Below, piece after piece: positions 4,551-51,863 of a DNA stretch of 64,000 nucleotides. The notes under the pieces are model-generated. The model saw only the letters and a list, made by a program, of their open reading frames with translations. It made no database searches and was not told where the DNA came from. The stretch is taken from the IMG/VR virus record IMGVR_UViG_3300035507_000332, one strand, 5' to 3'. The DNA comes from a virus (Duplodnaviria > Caudoviricetes). Positions within the stretch are counted from its first letter, which is position 1. Every line of letters starts with the position of its first letter. The translations under genes and the position numbers were made by a program.

Positions 4551-5348
4551 TTAATTACAGTAAGGAGAGAGAATGTAGTCGGAATCGACTTCGCACCGTT
4601 CGTGGACTTTACGGAAAAAGAGATATCCGTGATTCCTTAATGCTCTGATGTAAGCGTTGCGGATATGGAAATAAGTTCTAGGCTTCAGGCGTGGGACAAG
4701 ATGCTTGTACTTTTCAGGCGTCTCTACCCAAGTGACGTGAGTGGTAGTCTTTCTCTCATACGGTAGAAGAGCTTCCTTCAAGAATGAAATGTAGTAGTGT
4801 TCGTCAGAGAAGAATACCAACCTACATCTTTTTTCTAGTTCTTGGGCGTTAGAAACGAAGAAATGAGCCGTATCTCTATCCATTATCCACCATTGAGAGG
4901 CGAGGGCGAAATTAGCTTTGCTGAAGCCTTTTACAGTTTTGAAATGAGAGCGCATCCAACGGAATTCTAAGTTCTCACGTGCGTTTTCAATCGAGAAAGC
5001 AGGGAGCTTCATCGATTGTAGGATATCAATTGTTTTTGTGATATTGTAGAGAGGGCAGTGAGATTCGCTTAGGAGAACGAAAATTTTATTGTTCTTATTC
5101 TTAAAAGCTTCTTCTAACAGAGCGTTCGTTGCCTTAACTAGAGACAGCTCACTCCAGTCTGTTTCAAAGTGTTTTTCAATTACCCTATTGTCAATCCAGG
5201 GAATGAAAGATTTTTCTTTTTGGTGGACATAGAGATTCCACCGTTCGTCTGATTCGTCAAAGAATTTTCTCCACAAGTTAGGCTTAGTAAACCCACTCGA
5301 AGTTAGTAGCAAGAAAGCAACGGAATCCATTTTGTCATATCTACACAA
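4551..5348 (-). CDS. GT14 / core-2/I-branching beta-1,6-GlcNAc-transferase-like protein
   Basis: AFLLL..LWRKFF..YVH, TDWSELSLVKATNALL, FVLLSESHCPLYN, SQWW, DEHY, FFRKV motifs of the Branch family. Confidence 0.85.
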   Translation of the reverse strand: MCRYDKMDSVAFLLLTSSGFTKPNLWRKFFDESDERWNLYVHQKEKSFIPWIDNRVIEKHFETDWSELSLVKATNALLEEAFKNKNNKIFVLLSESHCPLYNITKTIDILQSMKLPAFSIENARENLEFRWMRSHFKTVKGFSKANFALASQWWIMDRDTAHFFVSNAQELEKRCRLVFFSDEHYYISFLKEALLPYERKTTTHVTWVETPEKYKHLVPRLKPRTYFHIRNAYIRALRNHGYLFFRKVHERCEVDSDYILSPYCN

Positions 5349-5878
5349 CCGACATCTTTGCCTCCTACCTTAAGGTCGTCAATGCCGAGTCTTTTTAAGA
5401 ATCTTAAGTACAAATTTTGTTGGTCTCTTTTAATGAGATCGAAGACTGCGTATTTCACCCCTAGTTCCCTAGAGGCATAAGCCGCTCCTATACGAGTAAA
5501 TTCTAACGTAGCGAAAGGGTCGTCTTTTGAAAAAAACATATACTCTACGTAAATAGAAGGAGTATCTCTGAAAGAAGTCATTCTAAACGGCATAAACCAA
5601 AATTCTTTATTGCCTAGTTCGTCAACAACATCGACTACAACTGTTTTTGTTCTACCGTCATTTTTGAGAGAAGAATCTATAGGGTCGGTAACAGCTGTAA
5701 TTTTTTGCCGAAGAGAAAGGTTCTGGAGGCTTAATTCCATTTTTGAAAACCTATCTATTACAATGGCTTTCATCTTTTCTCCTGCGACAGGGTCGTCTAA
5801 GAAATGAATAGAGGTAACATTATATTTCCCTTTCACAGCAAAAGACATTATATACTTTCTAAAAAAAAGCGAGAACAA
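5303..5878 (-). CDS. hypothetical protein
   Basis: 191-aa ORF overlapping the downstream gene. Confidence 0.6.
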   Translation of the reverse strand: MFSLFFRKYIMSFAVKGKYNVTSIHFLDDPVAGEKMKAIVIDRFSKMELSLQNLSLRQKITAVTDPIDSSLKNDGRTKTVVVDVVDELGNKEFWFMPFRMTSFRDTPSIYVEYMFFSKDDPFATLEFTRIGAAYASRELGVKYAVFDLIKRDQQNLYLRFLKRLGIDDLKVGGKDVGCVDMTKWIPLLSCY

Positions 5879-5953
5879 ATTTGCGATTTTGTAGTCTATA
5901 TAGTATCACCACCTAATATATCTTAGCGAGGTGGTCGCCAACAACAACACAAA

Positions 5954-6199
5954 ATGCACAACATGAACAGACTAGAGAAAGAAGCTTGTGACGAAATTTG
6001 GGAAGCCATTCGCTTAATTAGTCAAGCTTATGGACGCCTAGACGATATTGTCGAGAAAGCTGAGGAAGACGGCATTGATTCTTGCGAACTCTTTGTATCT
6101 GTGGAAGATCTAAGAGATGAGATTGGATGCCTCTTTGAAGACTCGATTGCCGAGTTAGAAGAAGACCTTCGAGACGCTTTATACGACGAAAGCTTCTGA
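5954..6199 (+). CDS. acidic hypothetical protein
   Basis: 81-aa ORF followed by a terminator hairpin at about 6209-6244. Confidence 0.65.
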   Translation: MHNMNRLEKEACDEIWEAIRLISQAYGRLDDIVEKAEEDGIDSCELFVSVEDLRDEIGCLFEDSIAELEEDLRDALYDESF

Positions 6200-6292
6200 T
6201 TGTGGACTCACCCTCTAGGAAAATTTCTTAGGGGGTGTTTTTTTCTTGAGTGCCTCTCTGTAAAAAGTGTACCGTGTGTAAGACTATTAGAG

Positions 6293-7453
6293 ATGGCGAT
6301 TCAAAGATATGTACCAGAAACTGTAGGAGACGACCCCTCCGAGTTCCTACAGGGGTATCACGACAATTTTACGGAGTTGATGTCCTTTGAGCCGTCGGCG
6401 ATTATTACTCTGTACACTTTGTCCTACGGAGAAACAACTTATAGATTCTTTCCTGGAAACGTCGAACAGGCAAAAGATGGCAAGCTAACAGGCTTTCCCT
6501 TCTCGAAAGAGCTTATTTACGATGGGGAATATTACTTCCCTATTCCTTGCGAAGACGAAGGATTTGAAGCGAGTATTGGCAACAAATTCCCCAGACCTAA
6601 ATTCCGAATTTCTAACGTCGTCAACAAATTCAGAAATCCCAACGAAGGAGAAGAAGGAACAGGGTATCTTTCCTACCACCGATTTATCTCTACAATCATG
6701 CGCTCCTATAACGACTTGAAGGACGCACGACTTAGAAGAAAGAGAGTCTTTTTGCGATTCCTTGACGGAGAGAATTTTGCAGGAGGAGAAAACCCATTCG
6801 GCATCCCAAACCCATTTGCTCTCATTGAAGACTCTGCGTGGGTTATTTATCAGAAGACGTCAGAAAACAAGTACTATGTAGAGTTCGAGCTTTCCTCTGT
6901 ATTCGACGTAGAAACAGCATACACTCCTGCTAGAAGATTGTCTTGCAAGTTTTGCTCGTTCGATTATCGAGGCGATGGTTGTAGGTACTCTGGATTACCG
7001 ATTTCAGACAAAAACGGAGATTGGTTTCAGTATAAAAATTCTAAATCGAAAACCTACTACGATGTAAAACTAAGAGTTTCTAGCCCTGTTGCTATCCTAG
7101 AATACGATCCGACTTCTTCCTATAAGATCGGAGATTGCTGTTACGTATCATCAGAGAAGACTTATTGCGAGACTCTGACTAATAGCGAGCCAGAATACGT
7201 AATTGATGGAGCAAACACCGATATGGTTGCGCTAAGGACTTACTATGTTTGCATCAAAGCGAACAACGCTTTAAACGTTAGAGAGCCAGGAAAGAACACA
7301 GATTATTGGCTTACTGACTGTTGCGGAAAAACGTTAGACGATTGTAGAAAAAGATTCGGGAACACAGAAGCAGAACTATATTCTGACAAGCAAATCAATT
7401 ACCCCTTGCCTTTTGGTGGATTCCCAGGTATTAACGGAACTAAATACGCATAA
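6293..7453 (+). CDS. lambda gpL-like minor tail tip protein
   Basis: CSFDYRGDGCRYSG, DCCGKTLDDCRKRFG, LPFGGFPG; start reassigned to ATG 6293. Confidence 0.85.
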   Translation: MAIQRYVPETVGDDPSEFLQGYHDNFTELMSFEPSAIITLYTLSYGETTYRFFPGNVEQAKDGKLTGFPFSKELIYDGEYYFPIPCEDEGFEASIGNKFPRPKFRISNVVNKFRNPNEGEEGTGYLSYHRFISTIMRSYNDLKDARLRRKRVFLRFLDGENFAGGENPFGIPNPFALIEDSAWVIYQKTSENKYYVEFELSSVFDVETAYTPARRLSCKFCSFDYRGDGCRYSGLPISDKNGDWFQYKNSKSKTYYDVKLRVSSPVAILEYDPTSSYKIGDCCYVSSEKTYCETLTNSEPEYVIDGANTDMVALRTYYVCIKANNALNVREPGKNTDYWLTDCCGKTLDDCRKRFGNTEAELYSDKQINYPLPFGGFPGINGTKYA

Positions 7454-7872
7454 TGAAGATCTTTAGTTTTTGCGATACGATAGAAGAGGCTTTGGCTGAA
7501 GTAAAAGACTTTTGCAAAGATTTGGCGGTTTTAGAAAGTTGTGGGTTCTTAGGATACTCTCCTAAAGAAAAAGCTTTTGTCATGGCAGGATGCGACAACA
7601 AAAGCGACAAGCCAGAGGAGAGCTTTCTCATCAACCCTTACGACCATATCGAGTTTATCTCGAAGTATAAAATTATTGCTATTTTCCATAGCCACCCTCA
7701 AACAGAAGAGCCTTCAGATAACGACAGAGCAGCTTGTAAAAACAGTTGCTTGCCGTTCTTGATTTACGGCGTTCATTCCGACGATTTTTCCCTTCTTGCT
7801 CCTAAAACTGTAGACAAGAAGTACATTTATCTAAAAGGATTAAAAGAACTAAAAGAACATTTAAGTAAATGA
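7453..7872 (+). CDS. JAB/MPN domain tail assembly protein (lambda gpK-like)
   Basis: ESCGF, FHSHP..PS..D JAMM motif; position after gpL-like gene. Confidence 0.85.
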   Translation: MKIFSFCDTIEEALAEVKDFCKDLAVLESCGFLGYSPKEKAFVMAGCDNKSDKPEESFLINPYDHIEFISKYKIIAIFHSHPQTEEPSDNDRAACKNSCLPFLIYGVHSDDFSLLAPKTVDKKYIYLKGLKELKEHLSK

Positions 7873-8444
7873 TTATTGAGATAGATGGAATGCTTGGCAA
7901 AGAATTTGGGGACCAAGAGACGCATTTTCACGAAGCAAAAGACATTCTAAAAGAGCTTTGCTCTAAACTAAGAGGATTTAAGGAAACTGTAATTACCTTG
8001 TCTGAAAAAGGCATGGACTATATCTTAGTTAAGGATAAAGGGAAATACAAAATTCTACCTATACTTTGTGGTGCAAAGAGTTTCTGGAGTAAATTTTTCA
8101 CAATTCTAGGCGTAGTAGCTTTAGCTGTGAGTGTTGCAGGGATAATTGCTGATACGGCAATTCTTGGCGTTACCTCTGGAACATGGGGGCTTATTGGTGC
8201 GTCTCTCTTGACTATTGGGTCGTTGCTAGCAAAACCAAGTGCGCAAAGCGTTGATACAAGTTCTCCTACCTCTGCAGGTTCTGCGTCAACAAATTTGGGA
8301 GGAGAAAACCCAGATGCTAACGGCACACCTATTCCTATTGGGTATGGGAAGTGCTTAGTTTCTCCTGTGTCTATCTTTCAATGCCTTGATTCTATTAGAG
8401 GTAACGCTGATATTACTTCGCACCTTAACCTTTCTGGTAGATGA
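7869..8444 (+). CDS. lambda gpI-like tail assembly protein
   Basis: GMLGKEFG, hydrophobic segment, GTPIPIGYG; synteny L-K-I-J. Confidence 0.75.
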   Translation: MIIEIDGMLGKEFGDQETHFHEAKDILKELCSKLRGFKETVITLSEKGMDYILVKDKGKYKILPILCGAKSFWSKFFTILGVVALAVSVAGIIADTAILGVTSGTWGLIGASLLTIGSLLAKPSAQSVDTSSPTSAGSASTNLGGENPDANGTPIPIGYGKCLVSPVSIFQCLDSIRGNADITSHLNLSGR

Positions 8445-11362
8445 AGCATTTTGAATTTAAATCTCTTATTCGAGGAAGCAAGGGTAAAGGTGGCAGTAGT
8501 GGTACTGTTGACCCTGCTTATTTGACGCCTCCTAGCGTTACTTCTGGAGACGCAATTATCAACAATATGACGTTCCAGTCTCTGGACCTCATATCCGAAG
8601 GACCTATTCAAGGATTTGTCGACGAGCAAGGATATCAGACTTACGTGTCAGATGGCTCTTTTTTCAAGTCTGTTTATTTGGATGAAAGCCCGATTAGAAA
8701 CGGCAATGGCAGCTACAATTACCAACGAGTAAAAGCCGATGCTAGGTTAGGGTATTCCGATCAGTCGTATATTTCTACGATTAACCGTCCGTCGATGGAA
8801 TATTCTATTAGCAAGACCTTATATGGACCTTATGTCTATAACACAGGAGAAAACTTAGCGAAATACGGCAAAAGCTCTGTAGACAACCGTCCTGCTGTAA
8901 AACTTGCTAACTCTACATCAAAGGGGACTAACTATTCTTATTGGGCGGACGAATCCGTTTCTCATTCTGGATTAGAGGCCCTTTGGGAAACATATACAAT
9001 TAAAGACAAGAGTTGTAGATATTTTTCATTCACTCTTGGCGTTAGTTCTCTTTATGATACGGCGTGCGTAGATACAGAACACGGTTACCAGGATGGGCCT
9101 GTTTTTGAAACAGACTGGTGGTCTGGGAAGTTACACGTAACATCCAGCGATTCTGTTTACAAAGCAGGTGAAACTTACGGGACTATTGTAGAATTTACGG
9201 TTGAATGGGGAAGATTAACTACAAGTGGCGTTGAACAACTCCGAGGCTCTAAGAATTTTACTATTTGGGGGTATGCTCAATCGACATCTTACATCGACTT
9301 CGGCTTAAACAACTACAACACGAATCCAAGTAAAACGTTCTATGGTGTTTTACAAGGGAACATGCAGACGTTTGATTTCCCTAGTGGATGGGATGGGAGC
9401 GATACTGAATACAAATTTATCCGATTCAAGAGAAAGACGCCAGAAACTTATTCAACGCTCATCAAGAGAAACATTGGTATTTCTAAGGTTACAGAGTACA
9501 CGCCTGTTTTCGTCAAGTATCCGTTGTGTGCATTAGGAGCTATCAAGGGCGACTCTAAGATTTTCACTCAAGTACCTAAGAGAAACTACCACGTTCGGTT
9601 GATGAAGGTGTTTACACCTAACAATTATCGACCTCTTATCACCTCTGGGGGCAAGATCTACGACAGAAGACGATATAAGGTAGCAGCGAACAAACCAAAG
9701 ACAATTGAAACTCTGACGGTCTATAAAGACACGTGGGATTACAAGACTCTCATCAAGCAATGGACGGACAACCCAGTTTGGATTGCGCTTGACTTGCTTA
9801 CTAGCCCTCGATACGGGCTAGGGGCTTACATTACGATGGAAGACATTGACATGTTCTCATTCTACGAAGCGGCTAGGTATTGTGACGACGTAGATGATGA
9901 TGGACTGTTCGTAGGAGCTTCTGATGGATACGGAGGGCTAGAGCCTTTGTATCATTGCTCTGTTCATATCAAGGAGCGCATGAACACATTGGAAGTTTTG
10001 AATTCAGTGCTCAGCTTGTTTGACGGCTCTCTTTACTGGGAGAGTGGGAAGATTTCCATTACCTACACAGCTGCCGCCTCACGAGTTCGAGCGATGTTCA
10101 ACAATCGAAACGTCATTGACGGCGTATTTTCCTATACATCAACCAAGCGAGATTCTCGATTCAACGTCGTTGAAGTTACCTATCAGGACCAGACAGACTT
10201 ATATAGAACTTCTATCGAGTACCGAACAAACGAACAAGACGTCAAGCAAAATGGTCCGATTAAAAATGCGATGAATGCTTGGGGCTGTACGTCTAAAGGA
10301 ATGGCGAGACGTATTGGAGATAGGTACTTAACGGCGAACAACCGAGATATTCAATCTGTATCTTTTGCGGTTGGCTACGAAGGCTTATTGTTGCAACTCA
10401 ACGACATCATTGTCATTGACGATGACTTAATGAATCTTACTGACAACTACGGTAGGTTGGTGAATGTAGAATACGTCGAAGACTTGATTAGACCAGGGAA
10501 TCCAGACGCCTACGAAGATGAAGACAAGGAAGACATCTACGACAAGTATTGCGTGCTAACAGTAGATACAGTCATCGACAACGAGAGATACGACGAAATT
10601 CTCAACATCTCAGTCTACCGCTCTAACCCTAACATTAAGAAAACAAGCGCAGGGGCATTCAGCCCTGAAACGATTTATTCTTATACAATTTCAAAGTGGT
10701 GGGTTGACGAAGAGAAGGGATACACCTACTTCAAAATCGACAAGAAGTACATCGGCGAAGAAGTGGGAGGGTTTATGATAGGCACAACCGTCTCTATCCA
10801 GACAAAGGATTACGCCTCACAAATCTTCCGTATTGCCACTGTAACCGACAACAACAACGGTACGTTTAACATTACAGCTACATACGTTTCTCACGAGGAA
10901 TACGCAGAGATTGCCGAGAAGCTTGCTAACCACTATTTGACAGTTGCAGAACTAAACGGATTGCCTATCATTTCCAACAATGGTTCTATTCTGAATCCAG
11001 ACGCTGATGACGAAGAAGACTATTCCGACGCACGAATGGAACAAATTAACAGCGAATACGACAAGATGATGGGTATTCTCAAAGCTCCTGACAAATTTGA
11101 TGTAACTGGATACATCGACGACACTCGACCTGTTAATGGGGTCTACATGGGAGATCTTTTCTTAAATTGGGAACTTGTAGATAACGCTTCTGGATATCAG
11201 ATCAAGGTAAAGAATTCATCAAACAAGGTTGTTTATAATGCTACTGTAGATGACCCAGTTGGTTCTGCTAATTCTCGACTTGAAAGTGCTACTTCGGATT
11301 ACAATGCAGCGAAAGCGGCTTTGGATGCCTTTTACGAAGAGAATCCAAGATACAAAGTCTAA
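8441..11362 (+). CDS. lambda gpJ-like tip attachment / central tail fibre protein
   Basis: LDLISEGPIQG, WTDNPVWIALDLLTSPRYGLG, YCDD, GCTSKGMARRIG. Confidence 0.9.
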   Translation: MKHFEFKSLIRGSKGKGGSSGTVDPAYLTPPSVTSGDAIINNMTFQSLDLISEGPIQGFVDEQGYQTYVSDGSFFKSVYLDESPIRNGNGSYNYQRVKADARLGYSDQSYISTINRPSMEYSISKTLYGPYVYNTGENLAKYGKSSVDNRPAVKLANSTSKGTNYSYWADESVSHSGLEALWETYTIKDKSCRYFSFTLGVSSLYDTACVDTEHGYQDGPVFETDWWSGKLHVTSSDSVYKAGETYGTIVEFTVEWGRLTTSGVEQLRGSKNFTIWGYAQSTSYIDFGLNNYNTNPSKTFYGVLQGNMQTFDFPSGWDGSDTEYKFIRFKRKTPETYSTLIKRNIGISKVTEYTPVFVKYPLCALGAIKGDSKIFTQVPKRNYHVRLMKVFTPNNYRPLITSGGKIYDRRRYKVAANKPKTIETLTVYKDTWDYKTLIKQWTDNPVWIALDLLTSPRYGLGAYITMEDIDMFSFYEAARYCDDVDDDGLFVGASDGYGGLEPLYHCSVHIKERMNTLEVLNSVLSLFDGSLYWESGKISITYTAAASRVRAMFNNRNVIDGVFSYTSTKRDSRFNVVEVTYQDQTDLYRTSIEYRTNEQDVKQNGPIKNAMNAWGCTSKGMARRIGDRYLTANNRDIQSVSFAVGYEGLLLQLNDIIVIDDDLMNLTDNYGRLVNVEYVEDLIRPGNPDAYEDEDKEDIYDKYCVLTVDTVIDNERYDEILNISVYRSNPNIKKTSAGAFSPETIYSYTISKWWVDEEKGYTYFKIDKKYIGEEVGGFMIGTTVSIQTKDYASQIFRIATVTDNNNGTFNITATYVSHEEYAEIAEKLANHYLTVAELNGLPIISNNGSILNPDADDEEDYSDARMEQINSEYDKMMGILKAPDKFDVTGYIDDTRPVNGVYMGDLFLNWELVDNASGYQIKVKNSSNKVVYNATVDDPVGSANSRLESATSDYNAAKAALDAFYEENPRYKV

Positions 11363-11392
11363 AGACATCCTCAACAAATACAAATAAAACAA

Positions 11393-11713
11393 ATGAGTAT
11401 TTCATCTAACATTCTTAATTCTGCTTTAGCGGCTACAAGCAAATACGACAAATTGACTCTTCTCGAACAAGCTGTGGAAGAAGCGAGAGCAGAGCTTCAA
11501 GAAGCAACTAGTGAATATCAAGCGGTTAAGGACACAGAGAGTTCGTCCTTGACTATTGAGCTATCCTCTGATTTGTATAGCGTTTCAATTTGGACGGTGA
11601 ACGCAGGGAATTTACCTAGCCGTTACCCAAATACGGTTCAATACTATTTGGTCGATGAAGGCTTAAAACTTAGAAGTCCAGAAATTACAGATATTACTGT
11701 AGAAGGAAATTAA
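11393..11713 (+). CDS. in-frame C-terminal continuation of the gpJ-like protein (coiled coil plus second half of an FN3 domain)
   Basis: same frame as 8441-11362, separated by one TAA and 10 sense codons; YSVSIWTVN FN3-like strand. Confidence 0.6.
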   Translation: MSISSNILNSALAATSKYDKLTLLEQAVEEARAELQEATSEYQAVKDTESSSLTIELSSDLYSVSIWTVNAGNLPSRYPNTVQYYLVDEGLKLRSPEITDITVEGN

Positions 11714-11714
11714 A

Positions 11715-14554: not shown

Positions 14555-14593
14555 AAAAACCGCTAGGTTGCCCTAGCGGTTTTTTCTTTTTCT
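14555..14593. terminator. bidirectional intrinsic terminator
   Basis: AAAAACCGCTAGG-TTGC-CCTAGCGGTTTTTT between convergent genes. Confidence 0.8.
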
Positions 14594-15952: not shown

Positions 15953-15955
15953 AAA

Positions 15956-16663: not shown

Positions 16664-16693
16664 TTTATAACCTCACCGCATAAAGATTTAACA

Positions 16694-40275: not shown

Positions 40276-40294
40276 AAATTTTTTTAGAAAAAAG

Positions 40295-40323
40295 TTGACG
40301 TTTCAAGGCGGATGTCATATAAT
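40295..40323 (+). promoter_or_regulatory. sigma70 promoter with 5' leader hairpin
   Basis: TTGACG-17-TATAAT followed by AGGGA-AAGCA-TCCCT. Confidence 0.8.
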
Positions 40324-40386
40324 ACGCAACGTTGACAGGGAAAGCATCCCTTGAAACAAATCGTCCAAATCAAACCAAGTCCTACC

Positions 40387-41085: not shown

Positions 41086-41133
41086 CCAACCTAACGAGAG
41101 GGGAGCAATCCCCTCTCGCAACCAAACTCAACT

Positions 41134-41481: not shown

Positions 41482-41484
41482 ACT

Positions 41485-42387: not shown

Positions 42388-42389
42388 AT

Positions 42390-43899: not shown

Positions 43900-43908
43900 C
43901 CACCATAA

Positions 43909-44712
43909 ATGAAGATAGCACTAGTTCAACTAGCTTTAGGAGAATTCTACTACCAGAGTTGGGACAGCTTCCACTCACTCACAAAGCAGAATTTCTTGCC
44001 AAACCACGATGTAACCATTCATCTGTTCACAGATGCCGAAAAAGTAGCGGTGAGGAAAGGGGTTGAGCTACACAAAATATCTTCCAGAAAATGGCCAGAG
44101 CCAACGTTTCTGAAGTACAGCTGTGTTTTACAGGCAATCAAGGATAATGAATACGATTACGTCTACTACCTAGATTCCGACAACGTTTGTGAAGCACCTG
44201 TACCAGAAGCGTTGGCGAAGGACGACTTCTCAATCATCTCACCAACCTCCTGGGGAGCTAAGTATGCAGGAGCATTTTTTGGAGGCAAAACCAAGTTTGT
44301 GACAAAGTTTTGCAAGTTAGTCCAAAAAGAAGTAGATAAAATTTTCCGAGGTGAGAAGTTCCCCGACCGAGAAAATGACGAGGAACTTATGTGTAAATGT
44401 GAAGTGTTGGGGTGTAACGTTACCACGTACCCACTCAACGACGTCTTCTGTTGGTACATCCATGGGAACGACCATAGTAATTTTTGGATATCACAAGCCG
44501 AAAAAGACTTCGTAAAGTCCCACGGATACGACATGTATGTAGACTTTGGATTCCTTAAGGGTGAAGCTCTTATTAACGAGAATCTGAAGCTTATTTGCGT
44601 GCTGGACTACAAGTCCTATTCAACGTACGGACGACTTGAGCAGATTGCGCCGAAAAGATATCGGATTACGTGGCAGGACACAGATCTTGGAATTAGCTAC
44701 TTGGATGTATGA
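43909..44712 (+). CDS. GT6 glycosyltransferase 1 (ABO/alpha-1,3-Gal-like)
   Basis: FTD, WPEPTFLKY, YYLDSD, YAGAFFGG, NDEE. Confidence 0.8.
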   Translation: MKIALVQLALGEFYYQSWDSFHSLTKQNFLPNHDVTIHLFTDAEKVAVRKGVELHKISSRKWPEPTFLKYSCVLQAIKDNEYDYVYYLDSDNVCEAPVPEALAKDDFSIISPTSWGAKYAGAFFGGKTKFVTKFCKLVQKEVDKIFRGEKFPDRENDEELMCKCEVLGCNVTTYPLNDVFCWYIHGNDHSNFWISQAEKDFVKSHGYDMYVDFGFLKGEALINENLKLICVLDYKSYSTYGRLEQIAPKRYRITWQDTDLGISYLDV

Positions 44713-45509
44713 AAATAGCCGTCGTGCAACTAGGCGTCAATAGGATGTACTATGATTTGTGCGACTCCTATTATTCCACGAATAAAGAGAATTTCTTCCC
44801 TGACGAAGAGGTCGATTTTTACATTTTCACCAACGTAAAGCCGACAGTTGCCAGAAGAGGGCAATATGTTTTTGTCAAAGATTACGAAGGTGTATGGCCA
44901 GAGCCGACCTTTAGGAAGTTTGAGTGTATCCTAGAGGCCATAGAGCGTAAGGAATACGACCGAGTTTTCTACTTAGATGCTGACAATTGTTTTTTGAGAA
45001 GAGCTTTGCTCCGAAAGGAATTCCTAGAGAACGATTTTTCTATTATCTCTCCTACTAGGTGGGGAGTAAAATACGGAGGGATGTTCTGGGGAGGCAAAAC
45101 CAAGTACGTAAAACAGTTTTGTGAGTATGTAAAAAGACGATGCGACAGAATCTTAGAAGCCAAAGAACTCCCTCTTAGAAATAACGACGAAGAATATTTC
45201 TATTGGCTAGACAGCGCAGGATTCAAAGTGACGAAATATTCTTACGACGAAGTTTTTGACGAAGGAGGCAAGAAATGGCTCTACCAGATTCCGAAGGATT
45301 TTCAGCAAGCCCACAGTCATAGAATATACATCGACTATGGCTTTGTGAGAGGATACGCAGCAATCAACTATTCAATGAAGCTGATATCAGTCCACGAGAC
45401 GCATTCTCTTTCTATTTACGGCCGTCTTGAAAATTTAGCAGAAGGGGTATATTCAATTACATGGCAGAATCCACAATTTCCTAACAGCTTATTAGACTTG
45501 AGGAAATGA
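44709..45509 (+). CDS. GT6 glycosyltransferase 2
   Basis: WPEPTFRKF, FYLDAD, YGGMFWGG, NDEE. Confidence 0.8.
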   Translation: MKIAVVQLGVNRMYYDLCDSYYSTNKENFFPDEEVDFYIFTNVKPTVARRGQYVFVKDYEGVWPEPTFRKFECILEAIERKEYDRVFYLDADNCFLRRALLRKEFLENDFSIISPTRWGVKYGGMFWGGKTKYVKQFCEYVKRRCDRILEAKELPLRNNDEEYFYWLDSAGFKVTKYSYDEVFDEGGKKWLYQIPKDFQQAHSHRIYIDYGFVRGYAAINYSMKLISVHETHSLSIYGRLENLAEGVYSITWQNPQFPNSLLDLRK

Positions 45510-46336
45510 AAATTGCGCTTATACGAGTAGCCACTGGAGAAAAGTATTGGAGCTTTTACGACCACTTCTACGAAATCACGAGGGAAAACTTCTTCCCTGA
45601 ACATGAGTTGCACACTCATGTATTCACAGATTGCGACAGAGTTACGCCAAGGAAGAATCAGATAGTGCATAAAGTATCATCTGATATCCGATGGCCAGAG
45701 CCATGCTTCAGGCGTTACGAATGGACGCTAGAGGCAATGGAGAGCGACGACTACGACTACGTTTACATGATGGACGTTGACAATTTTGTAGACGTTCGAC
45801 CACCAGAAGCTCTGATACAAGAACCATTCTGCATTGTTAGTCCCACAGAATGGCGTGTATTGTATGGCGGAGGATTCTGGGGAGGATTAACGGAGTTTGT
45901 CAGGAGATTTTGCCTGAAGATGAAAGCCGACATCGACGAAATCTTCAACTTCAACAGGCTACCAAGCGATGCCAACGACGAAGAGTTTCTGTATCATTGC
46001 GAGGAGCTAGGATGCAAAGTAAAGAAATTCCATTGGTCAGTTATACACAGAGACCTAAAATGGTCGCCTTGCTCTCAGAAATGGATGATACAAGTTGGCA
46101 AAGACATGCTAGTCGATAGAAAGTTCCAACATAAGGAAGATTGCGACTTTGGATTCTTCAAAGGGCCAGTTCTGATAAACGAACGAATGAGGGTTGTTTT
46201 ATGCTTTGAAAAGCGAAGCTTCAACCACTACGGAAGGTACGAAGAAATCGAGCCAGGCAAGCTCAAAATCACTTGGCAGGAAGAGCAGTATGGGGTAAGC
46301 TACCTAGACCTAAATGCAACAAAAGATAATAATTAG
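45506..46336 (+). CDS. GT6 glycosyltransferase 3
   Basis: VATGEKY, VFTD, MDVD, YGGGFWGG, NDEE. Confidence 0.85.
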   Translation: MKIALIRVATGEKYWSFYDHFYEITRENFFPEHELHTHVFTDCDRVTPRKNQIVHKVSSDIRWPEPCFRRYEWTLEAMESDDYDYVYMMDVDNFVDVRPPEALIQEPFCIVSPTEWRVLYGGGFWGGLTEFVRRFCLKMKADIDEIFNFNRLPSDANDEEFLYHCEELGCKVKKFHWSVIHRDLKWSPCSQKWMIQVGKDMLVDRKFQHKEDCDFGFFKGPVLINERMRVVLCFEKRSFNHYGRYEEIEPGKLKITWQEEQYGVSYLDLNATKDNN

Positions 46337-47780
46337 AGGGACGGAATACACAACAGTAGCCGAAGCGGCAAAAGCTACAGGAGTAGCACGGACTGCAATG
46401 GACAAATTCTTCCGTCGGCAGGGAGGATTTGCGTACGAAGATGCGGTAGCGAGAGGAGACATCAAGTTAATTGTCAATGGTGAGCAAGTAGACACGATGC
46501 TATTTCTTCCCGAACTTACCGACCGAACGAGAGAATCAGCCAACAAAGAGGTTGTACTCAAAGCTTCCAACCTAGAAAACGGCAAAGGAGAAATCCACAT
46601 CGACACAATTTGGTGCGACAAAAAGAAGTTCAGAAGCTACCGCCAGTTGATGAAGTATCTAAACGCCGACAGCAGGAGGACACAAACAATTTGCCAAGTG
46701 ATAAAGCTGTACGGCAAAAAGCTCACCACAAAGAAGTACCGAGAGGCTATCGACAAAAAAGGGTACGCACTCATTGACGGAGAACTTCTTAGCTACGAAG
46801 AAGCCTACGAGAGGTACGGCATGACAGAAAAGAAATTCTTTACGAGCTATGGGACAATTGTATTTCACAAAGGTAAACCAGGGAGCAAGATGAAAGACAT
46901 CACGCTCAATGGCAAAAAAGTTTGGGGAAGACAGATAGCCAGAGACTACGGAATTCCCTACTCACGAGTTCTCAAGTATGTAGACAAGCGAGGAATCACC
47001 AACATTACAGACGAAGACATCGAGAAGCTCAAACGCCTTAAGCATTGCAAGAGAATAGAGGTAGAGTTCAAGGGCATGAGCTTCTGTTCCATGAAAGAAT
47101 TCACGAAGGTGTTTCCGTCAAAGAACGTCTACAAAAAGCTCAAGAAATTCATCTGCGATGGCGAGGAAGTCTCCTACGGAAGTTTGCCATTCAACTACAA
47201 AGGCCAAACCTACACATTCTCAAAGGGTCAAGACCCCGATACCGTCGAGGAAATGAGAGCGGTAATTGACAGTATCGACCACGTGAGGTACGTACCATTT
47301 GAAGAAGTAGAGCGAAGAGTCCGACATCTCTACCTATGCGACTCGAATTTCTACTCTGCATTGTCAAAGTACAAGCACCCGAAGGTGAGGCTATTTGACA
47401 TCGAATCCTTGCTACAGTACAAACCCATACAAAAGCACGAAGGTATGTGCAGTTTATACTCAGCAAGTAAAATCCGAGCAGGTGAAATTAAAGAAAAGCT
47501 GGGAATCGACGAGCCACAGATTTTTTCACTGTATGCGAACTTAATTTTTGGCAAGCGACTAAAGCGAGAGAAGCCCATCTGCGTTAAACGAGGCACGCAA
47601 AAAGCAATTTTGTACCCACAAGAGGCAATCCTGGAGTTTATAGATGAAATCCTGGAGAGCTACACAGGCGAAGAATTCAAGGAAATTGCGCTAAGAGAAA
47701 CCAGTAGGCGCAAGAACAAGATAATTTTTGATTCAGAATTTCCATCTTATAAAGTTCTTGCCGAGGGAGAGCTATATTAA
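46314..47780 (+). CDS. basic protein with repeated small DNA-binding-like modules
   Basis: GTEYTTVAEAAKATG and similar repeats; K-rich. Confidence 0.5.
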   Translation: MQQKIIIRGTEYTTVAEAAKATGVARTAMDKFFRRQGGFAYEDAVARGDIKLIVNGEQVDTMLFLPELTDRTRESANKEVVLKASNLENGKGEIHIDTIWCDKKKFRSYRQLMKYLNADSRRTQTICQVIKLYGKKLTTKKYREAIDKKGYALIDGELLSYEEAYERYGMTEKKFFTSYGTIVFHKGKPGSKMKDITLNGKKVWGRQIARDYGIPYSRVLKYVDKRGITNITDEDIEKLKRLKHCKRIEVEFKGMSFCSMKEFTKVFPSKNVYKKLKKFICDGEEVSYGSLPFNYKGQTYTFSKGQDPDTVEEMRAVIDSIDHVRYVPFEEVERRVRHLYLCDSNFYSALSKYKHPKVRLFDIESLLQYKPIQKHEGMCSLYSASKIRAGEIKEKLGIDEPQIFSLYANLIFGKRLKREKPICVKRGTQKAILYPQEAILEFIDEILESYTGEEFKEIALRETSRRKNKIIFDSEFPSYKVLAEGELY

Positions 47781-47821
47781 GTTGACAAACCGCCAAGGAG
47801 AATGATAAACTCCTTGACGAA

Positions 47822-48124
47822 ATGTTTCTAGAGGTTAAACCAACCAAGTTAAAGAGTTTGCAGAAGTACGACTTCCGTAAACTTGGATTGTACCCTAGTG
47901 ACAACTACTGCGATTTGGAGACCTTTTGTTTGTATGCAGAAGTCGAGGCTAAAGACTTGTATTTGGCAATTGAGCAGGGAAAGTTGCCCACGTGGGGAAT
48001 TAGGTATTATCGAGAAGAAGTGGACAACAGCTACAGAATTGAGATGAACGAGTCAATTTGTGAGTTCATTCTTGAGAACGTATGCCAGAGAGACTTCTCA
48101 CTCAAAATTTGGCTAGGGATTTGA
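47822..48124 (+). CDS. hypothetical protein
   Basis: 100-aa ORF. Confidence 0.55.
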   Translation: MFLEVKPTKLKSLQKYDFRKLGLYPSDNYCDLETFCLYAEVEAKDLYLAIEQGKLPTWGIRYYREEVDNSYRIEMNESICEFILENVCQRDFSLKIWLGI

Positions 48125-48128
48125 AGGC

Positions 48129-48482
48129 ATGGAATACAACTGGAGAATAGAGTACGAAGATTCAGCAGGAAAGCACGTAGCTTTTGCCGTAACGAAGGAG
48201 AAAGCCAACGAGATAGCTAGACTCCTACGCAAGCAAGAAACCGTCAGGAGAGCAAAGGTACTCCGTAATTTTCAAAATTCCCATACGCACAACGAGCCAG
48301 ACCCATTGTCTATTTCCAAGCGAAAGGTTTGGGTAGTCTACTTTGTGAGGAGGGTAGAAGGTGAAACCAAGACGTCAATTGAGCTGTACGAGGACTTCCG
48401 AGACGCTGAAGAAGAAGCTCAGAAACTCAAAGACTTATGCCGATCTGGGAGGGTTTTTCTCTTCGACAAGGAAATAAATTGA
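48129..48482 (+). CDS. hypothetical protein
   Basis: 117-aa ORF. Confidence 0.55.
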   Translation: MEYNWRIEYEDSAGKHVAFAVTKEKANEIARLLRKQETVRRAKVLRNFQNSHTHNEPDPLSISKRKVWVVYFVRRVEGETKTSIELYEDFRDAEEEAQKLKDLCRSGRVFLFDKEIN

Positions 48483-48502
48483 GAGAAAATTCTAAAAAAT
48501 TA

Positions 48503-48531
48503 TTGACTTTGTAAGAGACCTCCCTTATAAT
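48503..48531 (+). promoter_or_regulatory. sigma70 promoter for a leaderless gene
   Basis: TTGACT-17-TATAAT, 6 nt before ATG 48538. Confidence 0.85.
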
Positions 48532-48537
48532 ACGTCC

Positions 48538-49596
48538 ATGTCCTACAACCAAGACCCACAATCCGCAGTCGCTTCCTTCAAGTTCACCACAGCTAAAAAC
48601 CCTGTGTACCGCAAGAAGTTTGAAAGCGACATTCCAGAAGAACTTGAAACCCCACTTGTAAACGAAGGCCTCGTCCTTGGCGACAAGATGAAGGCATTCA
48701 AGCCTAAGAGCAAGAAGCTTGAAGAAATCCTCTTGCCTTGTTCGTTCGCAATGAGCTACACCCCACATGGTACGCACTTTCCTTTTGGCGCATGTGAAGA
48801 CTATCTCCTTGTAACGAACGGAATGGCTGTTATGTACATCAAGAAGAGTCTCATCAACGACCCCGAAGGGAAGTACAACAGCGGAATTTTCTATCCTGCT
48901 ACCGATAGTACCAAGGTTAAGTTCTACGACGACGAACAAGGAGCAACCAACGTCATCAACAACGCCTACAAAATGGCTAAGAACTGCCTGTTCTGGGGAG
49001 ATATCCCTTCAAGAGTCATGCACAAGACGACTATTGGCGTTGAAGATATCCCTACTCTCTCGAAGGGTGCTGAAATGTGGTACAGACAAACTAAGGCACG
49101 TGGTGGCAGAATCGTCAGCTTGGGCTTAAAGCTCGATGATAGCGTAACTATTCTCCTTAGTTCCTACATGGAAATGGTCAAGGCTCTCTTCTCACTCATT
49201 GGTGACAAGGATTTGCGTCTTGAATCTTCTCACTACATCCGCCCAGGAGACGAAGACAAGAAAGTTGGTTTAGTCTCATTCCGTGGGGTTGGCTATAGCG
49301 AAGGAGATTTTGGCATCTTTGGTATGTGCGACCTCAAGCCAGGCAACCACATTTGCGTACGTCTCGATGGCAAGGGACAACAAGCAGGTGACTACCTCAA
49401 GAAGAACACTAGAGACTACGTAAAGCCTGTTGTAGTAGCCAAGGTTGAGAATAGCTTTGTGACGGTACTTTCAACAGCAGCTCCTAGTTGTAACTACGAC
49501 CCGAAGACACGCCAGTTGTATCCATGGGAAATCAACATTGACGAAGCAACAGCTCGAGTCCTCTACGAAGAACTTAAATACCGCTTTGAAAAGTGA
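48538..49596 (+). CDS. hypothetical protein
   Basis: 352-aa ORF. Confidence 0.7.
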   Translation: MSYNQDPQSAVASFKFTTAKNPVYRKKFESDIPEELETPLVNEGLVLGDKMKAFKPKSKKLEEILLPCSFAMSYTPHGTHFPFGACEDYLLVTNGMAVMYIKKSLINDPEGKYNSGIFYPATDSTKVKFYDDEQGATNVINNAYKMAKNCLFWGDIPSRVMHKTTIGVEDIPTLSKGAEMWYRQTKARGGRIVSLGLKLDDSVTILLSSYMEMVKALFSLIGDKDLRLESSHYIRPGDEDKKVGLVSFRGVGYSEGDFGIFGMCDLKPGNHICVRLDGKGQQAGDYLKKNTRDYVKPVVVAKVENSFVTVLSTAAPSCNYDPKTRQLYPWEINIDEATARVLYEELKYRFEK

Positions 49597-49859
49597 ATAA
49601 AACCGTGACTTTGATAGCGACCTGCCGTTCCTGCGGCAGGTCAGAAAGGGTAAATGTAACAGAGAAAGATTGGTTGTTCGTCAAAAAACGTGGACAATCG
49701 CCTCTAAATGCCTTTCCTTACCTCTCTGAGGACGTTCGCTATAGATTAGCCCATGGGCTATGCCTAACGTGTTCTAGGGGCAATTCTGAGCCAAGAAATG
49801 AAAACCGTGATAATATGTCCTCCGAACAAGAATCCACTAGCAAGCACCCGACTAACTAA
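49593..49859 (+). CDS. small zinc-finger protein
   Basis: CRSC...CLTC. Confidence 0.5.
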   Translation: MNKTVTLIATCRSCGRSERVNVTEKDWLFVKKRGQSPLNAFPYLSEDVRYRLAHGLCLTCSRGNSEPRNENRDNMSSEQESTSKHPTN

Positions 49860-50433
49860 GTTGGGGTATGAGTGGGAGACTTTTTGGAGCAATGACATTG
49901 AGTTATCGGACACTCGCCAGTCTGAATGCCTAACCTTTATGCGTGGGCGAAGTCTAGAAAACCTAGAGCAACGCCCACATGTAAGGCATCTACGTAACAA
50001 TTGGCAGAAGATTCTCGTCAATTATGCCGATTCTGACGAGAAAGTGCTATTTCTTGAGGAGGACGCATGTCCCCAGATTACAGCAGAAGACTTAGAAGAA
50101 GCAGTTGATAGGGAATTATCCAGCTACAAGGTCGATATCCTGCGCCTGTTCCAGACGTTGGTAAACAGCAATGGAGGAAGGCATCTGTTCAGCAAGAATT
50201 CTGAATTTGAGTGGTTTAGAGATTCAAGTTTGTGCCAGTATACCGACTACCACTATGGGTCACATGCCTATTTTATACCAAAAAGGTCAAGAATTGCCAT
50301 GGCACGTATCTTCAGTTCGTACCGACTACCAACAGACACAGCAGTAGAAATGGCCTGTGCCAAGGGAGACTTGGTAATGAGAGTTTCAAGAGACAATCTT
50401 TTCACGCAAGGAGTACATGGAAGCACGCTCTGA
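49798..50433 (+). CDS. GT25-like glycosyltransferase
   Basis: VLFLEEDA, YGSHAYFI, PTD. Confidence 0.6.
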   Translation: MKTVIICPPNKNPLASTRLTKLGYEWETFWSNDIELSDTRQSECLTFMRGRSLENLEQRPHVRHLRNNWQKILVNYADSDEKVLFLEEDACPQITAEDLEEAVDRELSSYKVDILRLFQTLVNSNGGRHLFSKNSEFEWFRDSSLCQYTDYHYGSHAYFIPKRSRIAMARIFSSYRLPTDTAVEMACAKGDLVMRVSRDNLFTQGVHGSTL

Positions 50434-51103
50434 TAAATCAACGTACTATTGCAAGCACTGCGACTGGAGTGGCAATGTAGAATTCTACAACGACGGAAAC
50501 TTCTACTCTGTAGGAAGGGAAAGTGGAAAATTCTATGTCACTAACGGTTGTATTCTCACATTAGCGTGGGATAGTTGGCCAGCAGAACAGGTCTACTTGA
50601 AAAATTCTAAGTGGATAGGCTCAAGGATGGTACTAACCAAGTTCGACGGACAAACAGACGTCGTTAATCTTAACCAAAATACTCAAGTTTCCAGTATCAA
50701 AGTTGTAGTCTCCGACTGCAATCAGTACAAAGAAGGATATTTCAACGCTGGGCTACCAAACTTCGACTGTAGAGACCGATTGCCATTTGCCGACAACTCA
50801 CTTAGCGAACTAGTAATGGAGGAGGGTATTTTCAAAATACTGACGCCTAGCCAGATGTACCTATTTTGTGAGGATGCACTTAGAATGTTACAGCAGGATG
50901 GCAAGCTAGAGCTTCAATTCTCCTCTATCGAAGAACTAACCGCCAAGAAGTCCAACCAAGATGCTGTAAAAGCTCTAAAGGACTACATGCTAGCAGGGAA
51001 TCACAAGAATTTTCCTAGCAAAACAGGGTACGTACAGATGCTATCAATTTTAGGCTTTACTGTAAAAGAGAGCGTAGGAAAAATCACAGCGGTAAAGCAA
51101 TAA
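50417..51103 (+). CDS. beta module plus degenerate SAM-methyltransferase-like domain
   Basis: LPFADNS..RMLQQDGKL; N-terminal HxxW..WDxW module. Confidence 0.45.
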   Translation: MEARSDKSTYYCKHCDWSGNVEFYNDGNFYSVGRESGKFYVTNGCILTLAWDSWPAEQVYLKNSKWIGSRMVLTKFDGQTDVVNLNQNTQVSSIKVVVSDCNQYKEGYFNAGLPNFDCRDRLPFADNSLSELVMEEGIFKILTPSQMYLFCEDALRMLQQDGKLELQFSSIEELTAKKSNQDAVKALKDYMLAGNHKNFPSKTGYVQMLSILGFTVKESVGKITAVKQ

Positions 51104-51104
51104 A

Positions 51105-51863
51105 ATGGACGAACAAAAACCTATCATAGCTCTAGTATTCAACAATCTGGACCAAGACTACTCTAAGACAATCGACAACAACGTCGATTTGGTGGCACGC
51201 TTCAATATGTTCCCCACTGGGGGCAAGTACGGCACGAAAACCGATATGGTATTTGCCTACATGCCAGACATCGTGGATGAATTATTTGAAGCCGATCTTC
51301 CAGGAGTCGATTACTACATGGTAGGAGAGGTGTACAAAGACTCTACAGACGCCTGCAAGAAAAGATTCCCTAATATCAAAAACCACAAGATGCCTATCGC
51401 CAACTGGAGAAGCTTGGCAAAGTCATCAATTCGTGCGTGGGCATTGAATTTTTTATTGTATAAGTACCAAGACTATGATATAGGAGTCCTCGGTGACTTA
51501 CCAAGCAATGCCAGTGAACAAGAGCAGTGGTTTGTAGACAACCTAAAGTCTAGTGGCTTAGTTGGTCAATGGACGAGAGCTTATGGAGGAGCGCAAGTAT
51601 TCTCTAAAGTGAACGACCCAGACCGCCAACCACCTCTCTACACGTCGGTCTATTGTGAGACTCCCTATTGGACTGACGACATCATTGTCATTGGTTACCG
51701 TACCTATCGAAACCAAGCTCCACAGGAAACCGCCATGCTTGTTGAGTATGTACCCAACGAGAAGCTCGTTATCCAGTGGGACGGTTATGGAGTCCAAGAA
51801 TTCAGGATGCACGAAGATGGTCAACGCTTCATCTCTGGACGAGAATTCTACTTCGACTGGTAA
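51105..51863 (+). CDS. divergent GT29-like protein with C-terminal beta module
   Basis: IDNNVDLVARFN..YGTKTD; C-terminal QWDGYG. Confidence 0.5.
   Translation: MDEQKPIIALVFNNLDQDYSKTIDNNVDLVARFNMFPTGGKYGTKTDMVFAYMPDIVDELFEADLPGVDYYMVGEVYKDSTDACKKRFPNIKNHKMPIANWRSLAKSSIRAWALNFLLYKYQDYDIGVLGDLPSNASEQEQWFVDNLKSSGLVGQWTRAYGGAQVFSKVNDPDRQPPLYTSVYCETPYWTDDIIVIGYRTYRNQAPQETAMLVEYVPNEKLVIQWDGYGVQEFRMHEDGQRFISGREFYFDW

Follow-up and report, generated by a model that had tools for sequence, protein, structure and literature searches.

Why would a tailed phage carry a dozen or so genes for sugar-transferring enzymes, and what would it build with them? The question is raised by a 64,000-nucleotide stretch of Caudoviricetes DNA (IMG/VR record IMGVR_UViG_3300035507_000332; hereafter the window), in which such genes are spread between positions 4551 and 51863. 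The first-pass annotation had counted about 13 glycosyltransferase-like genes and read them as matching the families that build mammalian mucin O-glycans. Our analysis supports eleven of them, namely one each of the glycosyltransferase (GT) families GT14 and GT25, two of GT2, three GT6-like and four short GT29-like genes, together with a cytidine monophosphate (CMP)-sugar synthetase. We infer that these genes, scattered as they are across the genome, form one glycan-assembly pathway. Tentatively, and with a probability that we put somewhat short of even, we take the target of this pathway to be the proteins of the virion.

Four of the genes belong to families recognized mostly by direct comparison with Pfam. 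The GT14-like gene (Core-2/I-branching family; 4551-5348, minus strand), which is divergent from the gene for tail protein L, matched Pfam Branch (PF02485) over profile positions 1-237 of 250 with an E value of 3.9e-22 (79.5 bits; cut-off 23.4). The GT25 gene (18509-19228, plus strand) matched Glyco_transf_25 (PF01755) with 30.2 bits against a cut-off of 24, and also PHROG 2835, 'glucosyltransferase'. GT2a (23080-24129, plus strand, with a possible true start at the ATG at 23164) matched Glycos_transf_2 (PF00535) with 26.9 bits against a cut-off of 23.3, and GT2b (24126-25103, plus strand) is its paralogue (blastp, 7e-25). The GT14 gene and the GT2 pair of the first-pass annotation were thus borne out. 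Both GT2 proteins have acidic motifs of the DxD type (MDNDD and IDDDD), read directly from the sequences. GT2a is homologous to the middle domain of a 787-residue protein from the Akkermansia-associated contigs described below, and GT2b is 35.5% identical over 321 residues to the copy of that protein in contig G002 (ORF3, the third open reading frame (ORF) of its cassette). No transmembrane helix was predicted in any candidate transferase, and the enzymes therefore act inside the cytoplasm.

Two further genes are unproven candidates. The gene at 29664-30512 (plus strand), which starts 6 nucleotides after the large fibre gene, is a candidate GT-A enzyme by its DDGS and DSD motifs only, and gave no match in Pfam, PHROG, NCBIfam or the PDB. 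Its nearest protein Atlas clusters consist of unnamed viral and Verrucomicrobiota proteins, one cluster being 13% GT2; it has one weak homologue in the phage record G003 and is absent from the relative G001. The gene at 49798-50433 (plus strand) encodes a conserved cassette protein, a candidate GT-A-like enzyme homologous to the N-terminal domain of the tri-domain Akkermansia-associated transferase: it is 37-39% identical to the copy in G001 and to residues 1-206 of G002 ORF3. It had no sequence match in Pfam, NCBIfam or the PDB. Its AlphaFold2 (AF2) model, of low confidence (pLDDT 56), found Mimivirus R655 as the best Foldseek match (E value 0.024) and gave weak GT-A matches that included a beta-1,4-galactosyltransferase. 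We took this gene as our candidate for the second GT25 of the first-pass annotation, an assignment that is unsupported (hhalign against the GT25 gene, probability 0.2%). Eleven of the roughly 13 transferase genes are thus supported by the searches, but a second GT25 is not, and the DxD GT-A enzyme is a candidate by its motifs.

The three tandem GT6-like genes (43909-44712, 44709-45509 and 45506-46336, plus strand) lie directly downstream of ThyX and encode proteins of 266-276 residues that are 36-42% identical to each other, with the motifs DSD, DAD and DVD. The best PDB match of their profile was the GT6 enzyme of Bacteroides ovatus, BoGT6a (1.5e-7), and dozens of human ABO transferase entries were matched at about 1e-6. 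The alignment to solved GT6 enzymes covers residues 1-114 and puts DSD, DAD and DVD at the aligned DxD/NxN position. The triplet also matched NCBIfam Gltr_6 (2.8e-14, though only 53 of the 250 bits that its cut-off requires) and PHROG 3317 (about 1e-13). Against Pfam GT6 (PF03414, cut-off 25), one paralogue gave an E value of 0.045 (13 bits) and the others gave nothing, and all matches of the triplet to known families were confined to the N-terminal 100-150 residues or so. Three GT6 genes, as first proposed, are therefore upheld by BoGT6a and Gltr_6, but below the Pfam cut-off and for the N-terminal part only. A GT6 domain in G002 that matches Pfam GT6 at 2.1e-32 also matches the window triplet, at 6e-14. 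All three paralogues contain an invariant N-D-E-E block, outside every tool alignment, that resembles the WHDESHLNKY of the G002 domain.

Another three tandem genes (32348-32881, 32878-33411 and 33413-33943, plus strand) encode the GT29-like triplet, proteins of only 176-177 residues. A fourth, diverged member (51105-51863, plus strand) aligns with the triplet, has an additional C-terminal domain (the X domain, below), and has the domain order seen in residues 573-827 of G002 ORF4. By sequence, the similarity to GT29 is slight: Pfam GT29 (PF00777) was matched in motif L only, at an E value of 0.2 (11.4 bits, below the cut-off of 23), and the match to motif L of ST3Gal1 in the PDB was weak (E value 1.5), while one distant homologue of the short family reached Pfam GT29 at 4.7e-4. 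The top Foldseek matches of an AF2 model (pLDDT 73) were ST8SiaIII (E value 1.2e-4), ST6GalNAc2 (template-modelling (TM) score 0.62), ST3Gal1, ST6Gal1 and Campylobacter Cst-I. An exhaustive structure scan with VIA-align gave Z scores of 10.8 for ST6GalNAc2, 10.3 for ST3Gal1 and 9.6 for ST8SiaIII, and the nearest annotated entries in the viral structure library were GT29 proteins of giant viruses, herpesviruses, poxviruses and an 'uncultured Caudovirales phage'. The short proteins are thus predicted, from the model, to share the variant GT-A fold of sialyltransferases. The same Z tier also holds a Maf glycosyltransferase (Z 9.6), MptE, SteA and thiamin pyrophosphokinases, and therefore the fold alone does not single out GT29. 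The three to four GT29 genes noted earlier are supported by predicted fold matches and by fusions to synthetases, but not by a Pfam GT29 match above the cut-off.

When 1.84 billion representatives were searched exhaustively with HMMER, this short family was recovered in 164 clusters at E ≤ 1e-3 and in 58 at E ≤ 1e-10; word-index protein searches with the GT29-like and GT6-like triplets returned only the phage's own lineage. Many of the family members are stand-alone proteins of about 170 residues, and many others have the domain at about residues 220-400 of a longer protein. In 26 of the 41 longer homologues, a CTP_transf_3 domain is fused at the N-terminus, and single cases have GT10, GT31/Fringe or Gb3-synthase domains. 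The proteins of the window triplet are 51-56% identical overall, divided between 85-89% in the first 47 residues and 36-46% in the remainder. The first 47 residues are the motif-L-like and presumably donor-binding part, and their near-identity, next to the divergence of the rest, fits one donor and several acceptors. One paralogue lacks a histidine near the C-terminus that is present in the other two.

The CMP-sugar synthetase for Kdo or a nonulosonate (31706-32347, plus strand, with an open frame extending up to a GTG at 31553) immediately precedes the triplet. It matched Pfam CTP_transf_3 (PF02348) at 3.8e-16 (60 bits against a cut-off of 22.6), confirming the earlier annotation. The best NCBIfam match was PseF, at 6.3e-15 over the full length but with 55 bits against a cut-off of 206, and the KdsB models scored 28-49 bits against cut-offs of 155-281, over the N-terminal half only; scores so far below the cut-offs single out no sugar. 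A single TAG and then GTG-ATG (32345-32350) separate the synthetase from the first GT29-like gene, which continues in its frame. This arrangement appears to be the split form of the fusion found in the homologues, and the junction may represent a recent fission or a coupling by termination and reinitiation. Recoding of the TAG, which would join the two proteins, was considered and is unsupported: TAG, the rarest stop codon, ends 6 of the 66 ORFs in the window, and there was no other sign of recoding. The organization of these genes is suggestive of GT29-like enzymes that use a CMP-activated acid sugar. Since there was no NeuB-type synthase in the three related phage records G001, G002 and G003, the acid sugar must come from a source other than the phage's own genes, probably the host.

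Upstream of the probable synthetase start (ATG 31706), 51 in-frame codons (31553-31705, directly after the endolysin stop) encode a hydrophobic, transmembrane-like segment with basic flanks. In G001 and G003 the synthetase homologues begin at the position corresponding to 31706 and have no such leader. The segment could be a membrane anchor or the result of a mis-called start.

Four of the window proteins have in common a previously unnoticed domain of about 70 residues, here called the X domain, with the pattern H-P-x-W ... G ... L-x-L-x-W-D-x-W-G-x-E-x-F ... D-G. A local hidden Markov model (HMM) built from seven copies placed it at the C-termini of GT2a (23908-24126) and GT2b (24888-25100), at the N-terminus of a methyltransferase-like protein (50420-50632) and at the C-terminus of the fourth GT29-like protein (51627-51854), all on the plus strand. 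The methyltransferase-like protein (50417-51103, plus strand), in which the X domain is followed by the methyltransferase-like region, has an orthologue in G001 and is 30% identical to residues 216-399 of G002 ORF2, a stretch with a weak Methyltransf_11 match. The HMM also matched the G001 orthologues of GT2a (7e-17) and of the 50417 protein (6e-11), as well as a 685-residue protein of G003 (1e-6), but nothing significant among PDB sequences. In the protein Atlas, the predicted X fold occurs on Verrucomicrobiota proteins with GT6, GT31 or CTP_transf_3 domains, and on transferases of Nucleocytoviricota (giant viruses). An X domain suspected by eye at the C-termini of the GT6-like proteins was dropped, as the HMM found none there. 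The presence of one domain on three catalytic types of one pathway is most simply explained if it is a docking or acceptor-binding module, and from its distribution we consider that it probably docks the enzymes on a shared acceptor or to one another.

The same genes recur in other phages. G001, a complete IMG/VR contig of 173,439 bp reached via one homologue, shares 30-65% protein identity with the window, and the gene order of the two agrees between the AAA ATPase and the helicase, tail genes included. It has the GT14 gene (50% identical, in the same place beside tail L), GT25 (42%), GT2a and GT2b (44.5% and 38%), one GT6-like gene (46%), one short GT29-like gene (31-34%), a synthetase homologue (26%) and the 49798/50417 pair (39% and 29%); the GT14, GT25 and GT2 genes retain their position in the gene order. 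It has neither ThyX nor the DxD candidate. The conservation of the gene set across such divergence suggests a role intrinsic to the phage rather than add-on genes for a particular host. In G003 (146,645 bp), which is unrelated to and non-syntenic with the window, the synthetase adjoins three tandem short GT29-like genes. At each end of G001 lies an inverted terminal repeat, about 26 kb long or more, with the synthetase homologue (11273-11899 and 161541-162167) and a 418-residue ORF; these repeat ends are either an unusual genome-end structure or an assembly artefact.

The most compact version of the set is found in G002, a 31.2-kb phage contig in which the genes form a same-strand string. A GT4 gene is followed by ORF2 (751 residues; GT31, an X domain/methyltransferase-like part resembling the 50417 protein, and GT11), ORF3 (787 residues; a 49798-like domain, GT2 and the GT6 domain mentioned above), ORF4 (1076 residues; a GT10 fucosyltransferase, CTP_transf_3, a short GT29-like domain and an X domain) and a weakly CgtA-like protein. 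The major capsid gene (Phage_capsid_2, 1.3e-36) follows immediately, in the same orientation. Relatives of the 787-residue protein, with 43-89% identity, were found in ten contigs from metagenome-assembled genomes (MAGs), eight of which are named Akkermansia muciniphila, Akkermansia sp., Akkermansiaceae or Verrucomicrobiales. The domain order is shuffled among the cassettes of these contigs, and the GT6 domain is sometimes missing. Seven of the scattered window genes have counterparts that are fused or adjacent in the G002-type cassette, which is our chief reason for thinking that they work together. A literature search on phage GT29, phage GT6 and Akkermansia phage transferase cassettes found no description of them.

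Expression signals clearly divide the transferase genes of the window into two classes, one in the presumed late region (16000-35900) and one in the early region (38400-52400). Matches to sigma-70-type promoters are depleted in 16000-35900, which contains tail, fibre and lysis genes (15 found against 25.5 ± 5 expected). The endolysin gene, the synthetase and the GT29-like triplet lie within a single interval between a terminator at 30935-30961 and a promoter at 33946, and the depletion of promoters around this unit suggests late expression. The fibre gene has the GT2 pair on one side and the DxD candidate on the other, and the earlier observation that transferase genes adjoin tail or fibre genes is real. 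Near-consensus TTGAC-17-TATAAT promoters head units at 33946, 38885, 40295, 47782 and 48503. The GT6-like triplet and the trio at 49798-51863 are in a unit with replication genes and with the strong sigma-70-type promoters at 38885, 40295, 47782 and 48503, which ends at a strong terminator at 52261. A motif GTGTAA(A/T) does lie upstream of the GT2 pair, as the first-pass annotation had noted under the name of a putative late motif, and of several structural genes. As a late promoter, GTGTAAA is suggestively placed, but it is not enriched over the whole window (13 found against 9.6 expected).

We propose the following pathway. The soluble, cytoplasmic GT14-like, GT25, GT2 and GT6-like enzymes would lengthen and branch a heteroglycan, drawing on nucleotide sugars of the host. 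The phage synthetase would activate a 2-keto-3-deoxy acid sugar supplied by the host (Kdo, or a sugar of the sialic, pseudaminic or legionaminic type), and the four short GT29-like transferases would attach it to different acceptors. The methyltransferase-like protein may modify the product, and the X domain would hold the four enzymes that have it on their acceptor or together. The likeliest acceptors would be virion proteins of the phage itself, tail fibres or others of its structural proteins, which would receive the glycan in the cytoplasm while particles are being assembled. While the gene families, their conservation and their fusion or clustering in other phages can be read from the genomes, the single pathway, the acceptor, the sugars and the purpose are our interpretation of them. 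We favor the virion as the target because of the late operon, the genes flanking the fibre gene, the adjacency to the capsid gene in G002, the conservation within the lineage and the parallels in giant viruses. Maf enzymes place nonulosonic acids directly on a protein, flagellin. The presence of Maf in the same fold tier makes protein acceptors plausible for the GT29-like fold.

Several points weigh against a virion target. The virion glycan, the glycoprotein and the acceptor are all predicted from genes. No known initiating enzyme for protein glycans was identified in the ORFs scanned, and the structural proteins encoded in the window have no Ser/Thr-rich acceptor tract. Capsid adjacency was seen for G002 only, the head genes of the window phage lying outside the window, and a virion location for the product of the Akkermansia-associated cassette is likewise deduced from gene order. 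The strong sigma-70-type promoters and the replication genes in the GT6-like unit make early expression possible; the GT6-like triplet and the 49798-51863 trio may thus be made early, which would also fit a remodelling of the host surface. Moreover, GT25, GT14-like, GT6, GT42/29-like and CgtA-like enzymes make up the classic kit with which bacteria build the outer core of lipo-oligosaccharide (LOS), and these too are soluble or peripheral.

The enzymes might accordingly remodel envelope glycans of the infected cell (the outer core of lipopolysaccharide (LPS) or LOS, the O-unit or the capsule) by working on acceptors linked to lipid on the inner side of the membrane. Masking of the receptor would shut out other phages and keep progeny from being wasted on debris; where relatives are temperate, the lysogen would gain a new and possibly host-mimicking surface. 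GT25, GT14-like, GT6 and GT29/42-like enzymes with a CMP-sugar synthetase do match the LOS and O-antigen toolkits of Haemophilus, Neisseria, Campylobacter and E. coli O86, whose LOS-type enzymes are likewise without transmembrane helices. Half of the genes are in the sigma-70-driven early/middle unit, a hydrophobic leader lies in frame ahead of the synthetase, and the contigs with cassette homologues that were binned with Akkermansia genomes could be prophages. However, we saw no gene for a flippase, polymerase, ligase, GtrA/B-type protein or priming phosphoglycosyl-transferase in the ORFs scanned, and the synthetase homologues do not have the leader. The set is conserved across phages with G+C contents of 33%, 44% and 52%, whose hosts should differ in their surface glycans. 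The synthetase and GT29-like genes are co-transcribed with the endolysin, too late for a useful change of the surface, and the G002 cassette sits inside a string of structural genes, not beside an integrase. On balance we regard envelope remodelling as doubtful.

Modification of DNA was also considered. Some or all of the transferases could glycosylate phage DNA bases as a protection against restriction, much as the glucosyltransferases of T-even phages and the GT-A enzymes of Pyle et al. do, and the main candidates would be the GT6-like triplet, which directly follows ThyX in the unit with the helicase and other replication genes. Phage GT-A enzymes add diverse glycans to 5-hydroxymethylcytosine (5hmC), and the weak APH-like kinase match of the ORF at 1384-2523 recalls accessory enzymes listed in the same study (bioRxiv 10.1101/2023.12.21.572611). 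Yet the complete relative G001 has no ThyA-family hydroxymethylase, and none was found in G002 and G003; in a search made without a positive control, no Tet/JBP dioxygenase was found in these three either. G001 retains its GT6-like gene without ThyX, the Akkermansia-associated contigs fuse the GT6 domain to GT2 inside a capsid-adjacent cassette, and the window's own ThyX indicates an ordinary supply of deoxythymidine monophosphate (dTMP). On the evidence of these records and of the 64 kb of the window, we consider this explanation very improbable. That the genes are instead unrelated acquisitions with separate functions or no current ones (auxiliary genes and decaying paralogues, the apparent set being a by-product of a large genome) also strikes us as improbable. 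They are spread over seven loci and two transcription regimes, several fall far below curated family cut-offs, and one GT29-like paralogue lacks the histidine near its C-terminus. Nevertheless, the same domains are fused or clustered in other phages, orthologues are kept at 30-50% identity in G001, the reading frames are intact with motifs conserved in all paralogues, and the X domain is common to several catalytic types.

The glycan coat on the virion or the infected cell that the first-pass annotation had proposed thus becomes the leading reading, ahead of DNA, but its designation as a mucin O-glycan is unsupported in the window. Among 50 window ORFs scanned with Pfam, there was no GT27, no GT31 core-1 enzyme and no fucosyltransferase, and no window ORF has a Ser/Thr-rich repeat tract; a mammalian mucin-type pathway would call for a GT27 polypeptide GalNAc-transferase to initiate, a GT31 core-1 enzyme and a Pro/Thr/Ser-rich acceptor. 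GT14, GT25, GT6 and GT29/42-type enzymes also build bacterial lipo-oligosaccharides, and a CAZy family does not fix the product. The Akkermansia-associated cassette, on the other hand, combines GT11, GT6, GT10 and GT31 with a sialyltransferase-like domain, which is the set of families needed for ABH, Lewis and sialylated epitopes. A product resembling blood-group or Lewis antigens, and the earlier idea of a mucin-foraging host, therefore stay possible. Akkermansia is a mucin specialist of the human gut, and the likely host of the phages with this cassette is an archetypal mucin forager. An extension of the virion proposal, which we think rather improbable, is that gut phages, including the Akkermansia-associated ones and the present lineage, coat their virions with animal-like ABH/Lewis epitopes and a scavenged sialic-like cap by means of a modular X-domain cassette. 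If so, the animal-like coat would aid persistence in mucus, escape from immunity, or capture by the glycan-harvesting machinery of a mucin-foraging host.

The phage itself has a genome of at least 142 kb, as one window protein is present on a contig of 141,971 bp. The G+C content is 44% for the window, 33% for G001, 36% for G003 and 52% for G002. A near-identity DNA search of 50,697 phage records gave no match to the window, neither the J protein nor the GT6-like profile found anything in IMG/VR, and tblastn searches for close relatives with P0162 and with the ORF at 21796-23052 also gave none; tblastn with a GT6-like protein against cultured phages found a single weak cyanophage match. The tail L and J proteins resemble those of proteobacterial siphophages at only 25-34% identity. 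The tail-tip block comprises lambda-type genes L, K-like, I-like and J (6200-11362, plus strand; Pfam Phage_tail_L and PHROGs 30, 32 and 31), with a 944-residue fibre-like protein (11715-14549, plus strand) listed in the same block. A tail fibre of 1431 residues (25363-29658, plus strand), with PHROG tail-protein matches, sits between the GT2 pair and the DxD candidate, and a paralogous fibre-like gene is found at 36541-38421 on the minus strand (blastp between the two proteins, 1.7e-33). The endolysin (Amidase_3; 30995-31531, plus strand; Pfam E value 1.2e-28) heads the unit that contains the synthetase and the GT29-like triplet. Further along, 38923-43899 encodes a PIF1 helicase and ThyX, and small early-gene cassettes occupy the window from about 52 kb onward.

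Other neighboring genes were noted in passing. After the AAA ATPase, a 379-residue ORF (1384-2523), conserved in G001, has a weak APH/kinase-like Pfam match (E value 0.003); some pathways of sugar and DNA hypermodification come with kinase-like enzymes. A minus-strand pair between the tail genes and the GT25 block (14573-16663) is conserved in G001. One of its proteins combines a Zn-ribbon with an MTES_1575-type restriction-endonuclease-like domain and has three paralogous matches in G003, and the other is a GAF-domain protein. A thioredoxin gene (19225-19539) overlaps the end of the GT25 gene by 4 nucleotides and is found in the same place in G001. The minus-strand ORF at 21796-23052, of 418 residues and without family match, is nevertheless among the most conserved of the shared proteins (63% identity to G001). 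It has a GTGTAAA motif ahead of it and a bidirectional terminator after it, and in G001 it is non-syntenic, lying in each of the two long inverted terminal repeats (25405-26595 and 146845-148035). Just upstream of ThyX are two tandem paralogues (41485-43238; 30% identical), rich in charged residues and apparently coiled-coil, without family match. A Shine-Dalgarno-like motif precedes only 11 of the 66 ORFs, a weak hint on the translation signals of the host.

Two protein modules are defined here: a very short GT29-like family (the 164 representative clusters) with natural fusions to CMP-sugar synthetases, and the accessory domain of about 70 residues on transferases of phages, Verrucomicrobiota and giant viruses. 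They belong to a conserved set of 11-13 genes that combines ABO-type and sialyltransferase-type enzymes with its own sugar-activating enzyme, and that has a fused counterpart beside the capsid gene in Akkermansia-associated contigs. To our knowledge, glycosylation of tailed-phage virions has been shown experimentally only in mycobacteriophages. If the virion is indeed the target, virus-directed glycosylation would extend to gut phages; this would bear on the interactions of phages with mucus and with immunity, and possibly on how they find mucin-foraging hosts.

The gene set shares features with several known systems. The sialylation of LOS in Haemophilus and Neisseria likewise requires only an activating enzyme and transferases, without genes for synthesis of the acid sugar, but that system is cellular and acts on LOS, whereas the present one is phage-encoded and has four transferase paralogues. 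Like the window, chlorovirus PBCV-1 (A064R-type proteins) and Mimivirus (R655/R699-type) encode cytoplasmic sets of transferases with several domains or genes, and these build a complex glycan on virion proteins independently of the host machinery. Their hosts, however, are eukaryotic and their catalytic families and sugars are different; only the accessory X fold is common to both, with no orthology at the sequence level. Among cellular enzymes, BoGT6a (PDB 4ayj/4cj8) is, like the triplet, a short, stem-less GT6 catalytic domain of about 250 residues in which the YxGxxxGG block aligns; the B. ovatus enzyme makes blood-group antigens (PMC3516806, PMC3961637). BoGT6a has Asn-x-Asn and is metal-independent, whereas the phage proteins have Asp-x-Asp, are triplicated and are detectably similar in the N-terminal half only. 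Bacterial GT29 enzymes (Petit et al. 2018, PMC5811610) also have neither a transmembrane anchor nor the motif cysteines. GT29 and the GT42 enzymes CstI/CstII share the variant GT-A fold predicted for the GT29-like proteins, which have a motif-L-like N-terminus and a link to a synthetase; the GT29 catalytic domain, however, has about 270 residues compared to only about 177 here, and most of the longer homologues are naturally fused to a synthetase. The enzymes of phage DNA glycosylation (the T4 alpha- and beta-glucosyltransferases, and the 5mYOX-/ThyS-linked GT-A and GT-B enzymes of bioRxiv 10.1101/2023.12.21.572611) are similarly soluble, and some are encoded beside nucleotide-metabolism genes, but the families differ, no hydroxymethylase or dioxygenase partner was found in the complete relative, and elsewhere the domains are fused in a capsid-adjacent cassette. 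The closest parallel in kind is the virion glycosylation of mycobacteriophages Che8, Corndog and Myrna (Freeman et al. 2023, as cited in PMC12619734). As far as that citing account describes them, these are also tailed phages with soluble transferases, some with a methyltransferase, among or near structural genes, and their glycans end up on capsid and tail proteins, while the window phage is known from genes alone. The mycobacteriophage systems, in the same account, consist of about 2-4 enzymes of other families in phages of Actinobacteria, compared to the 11-13 or so genes, the synthetase and the docking-type domain of the set described here.

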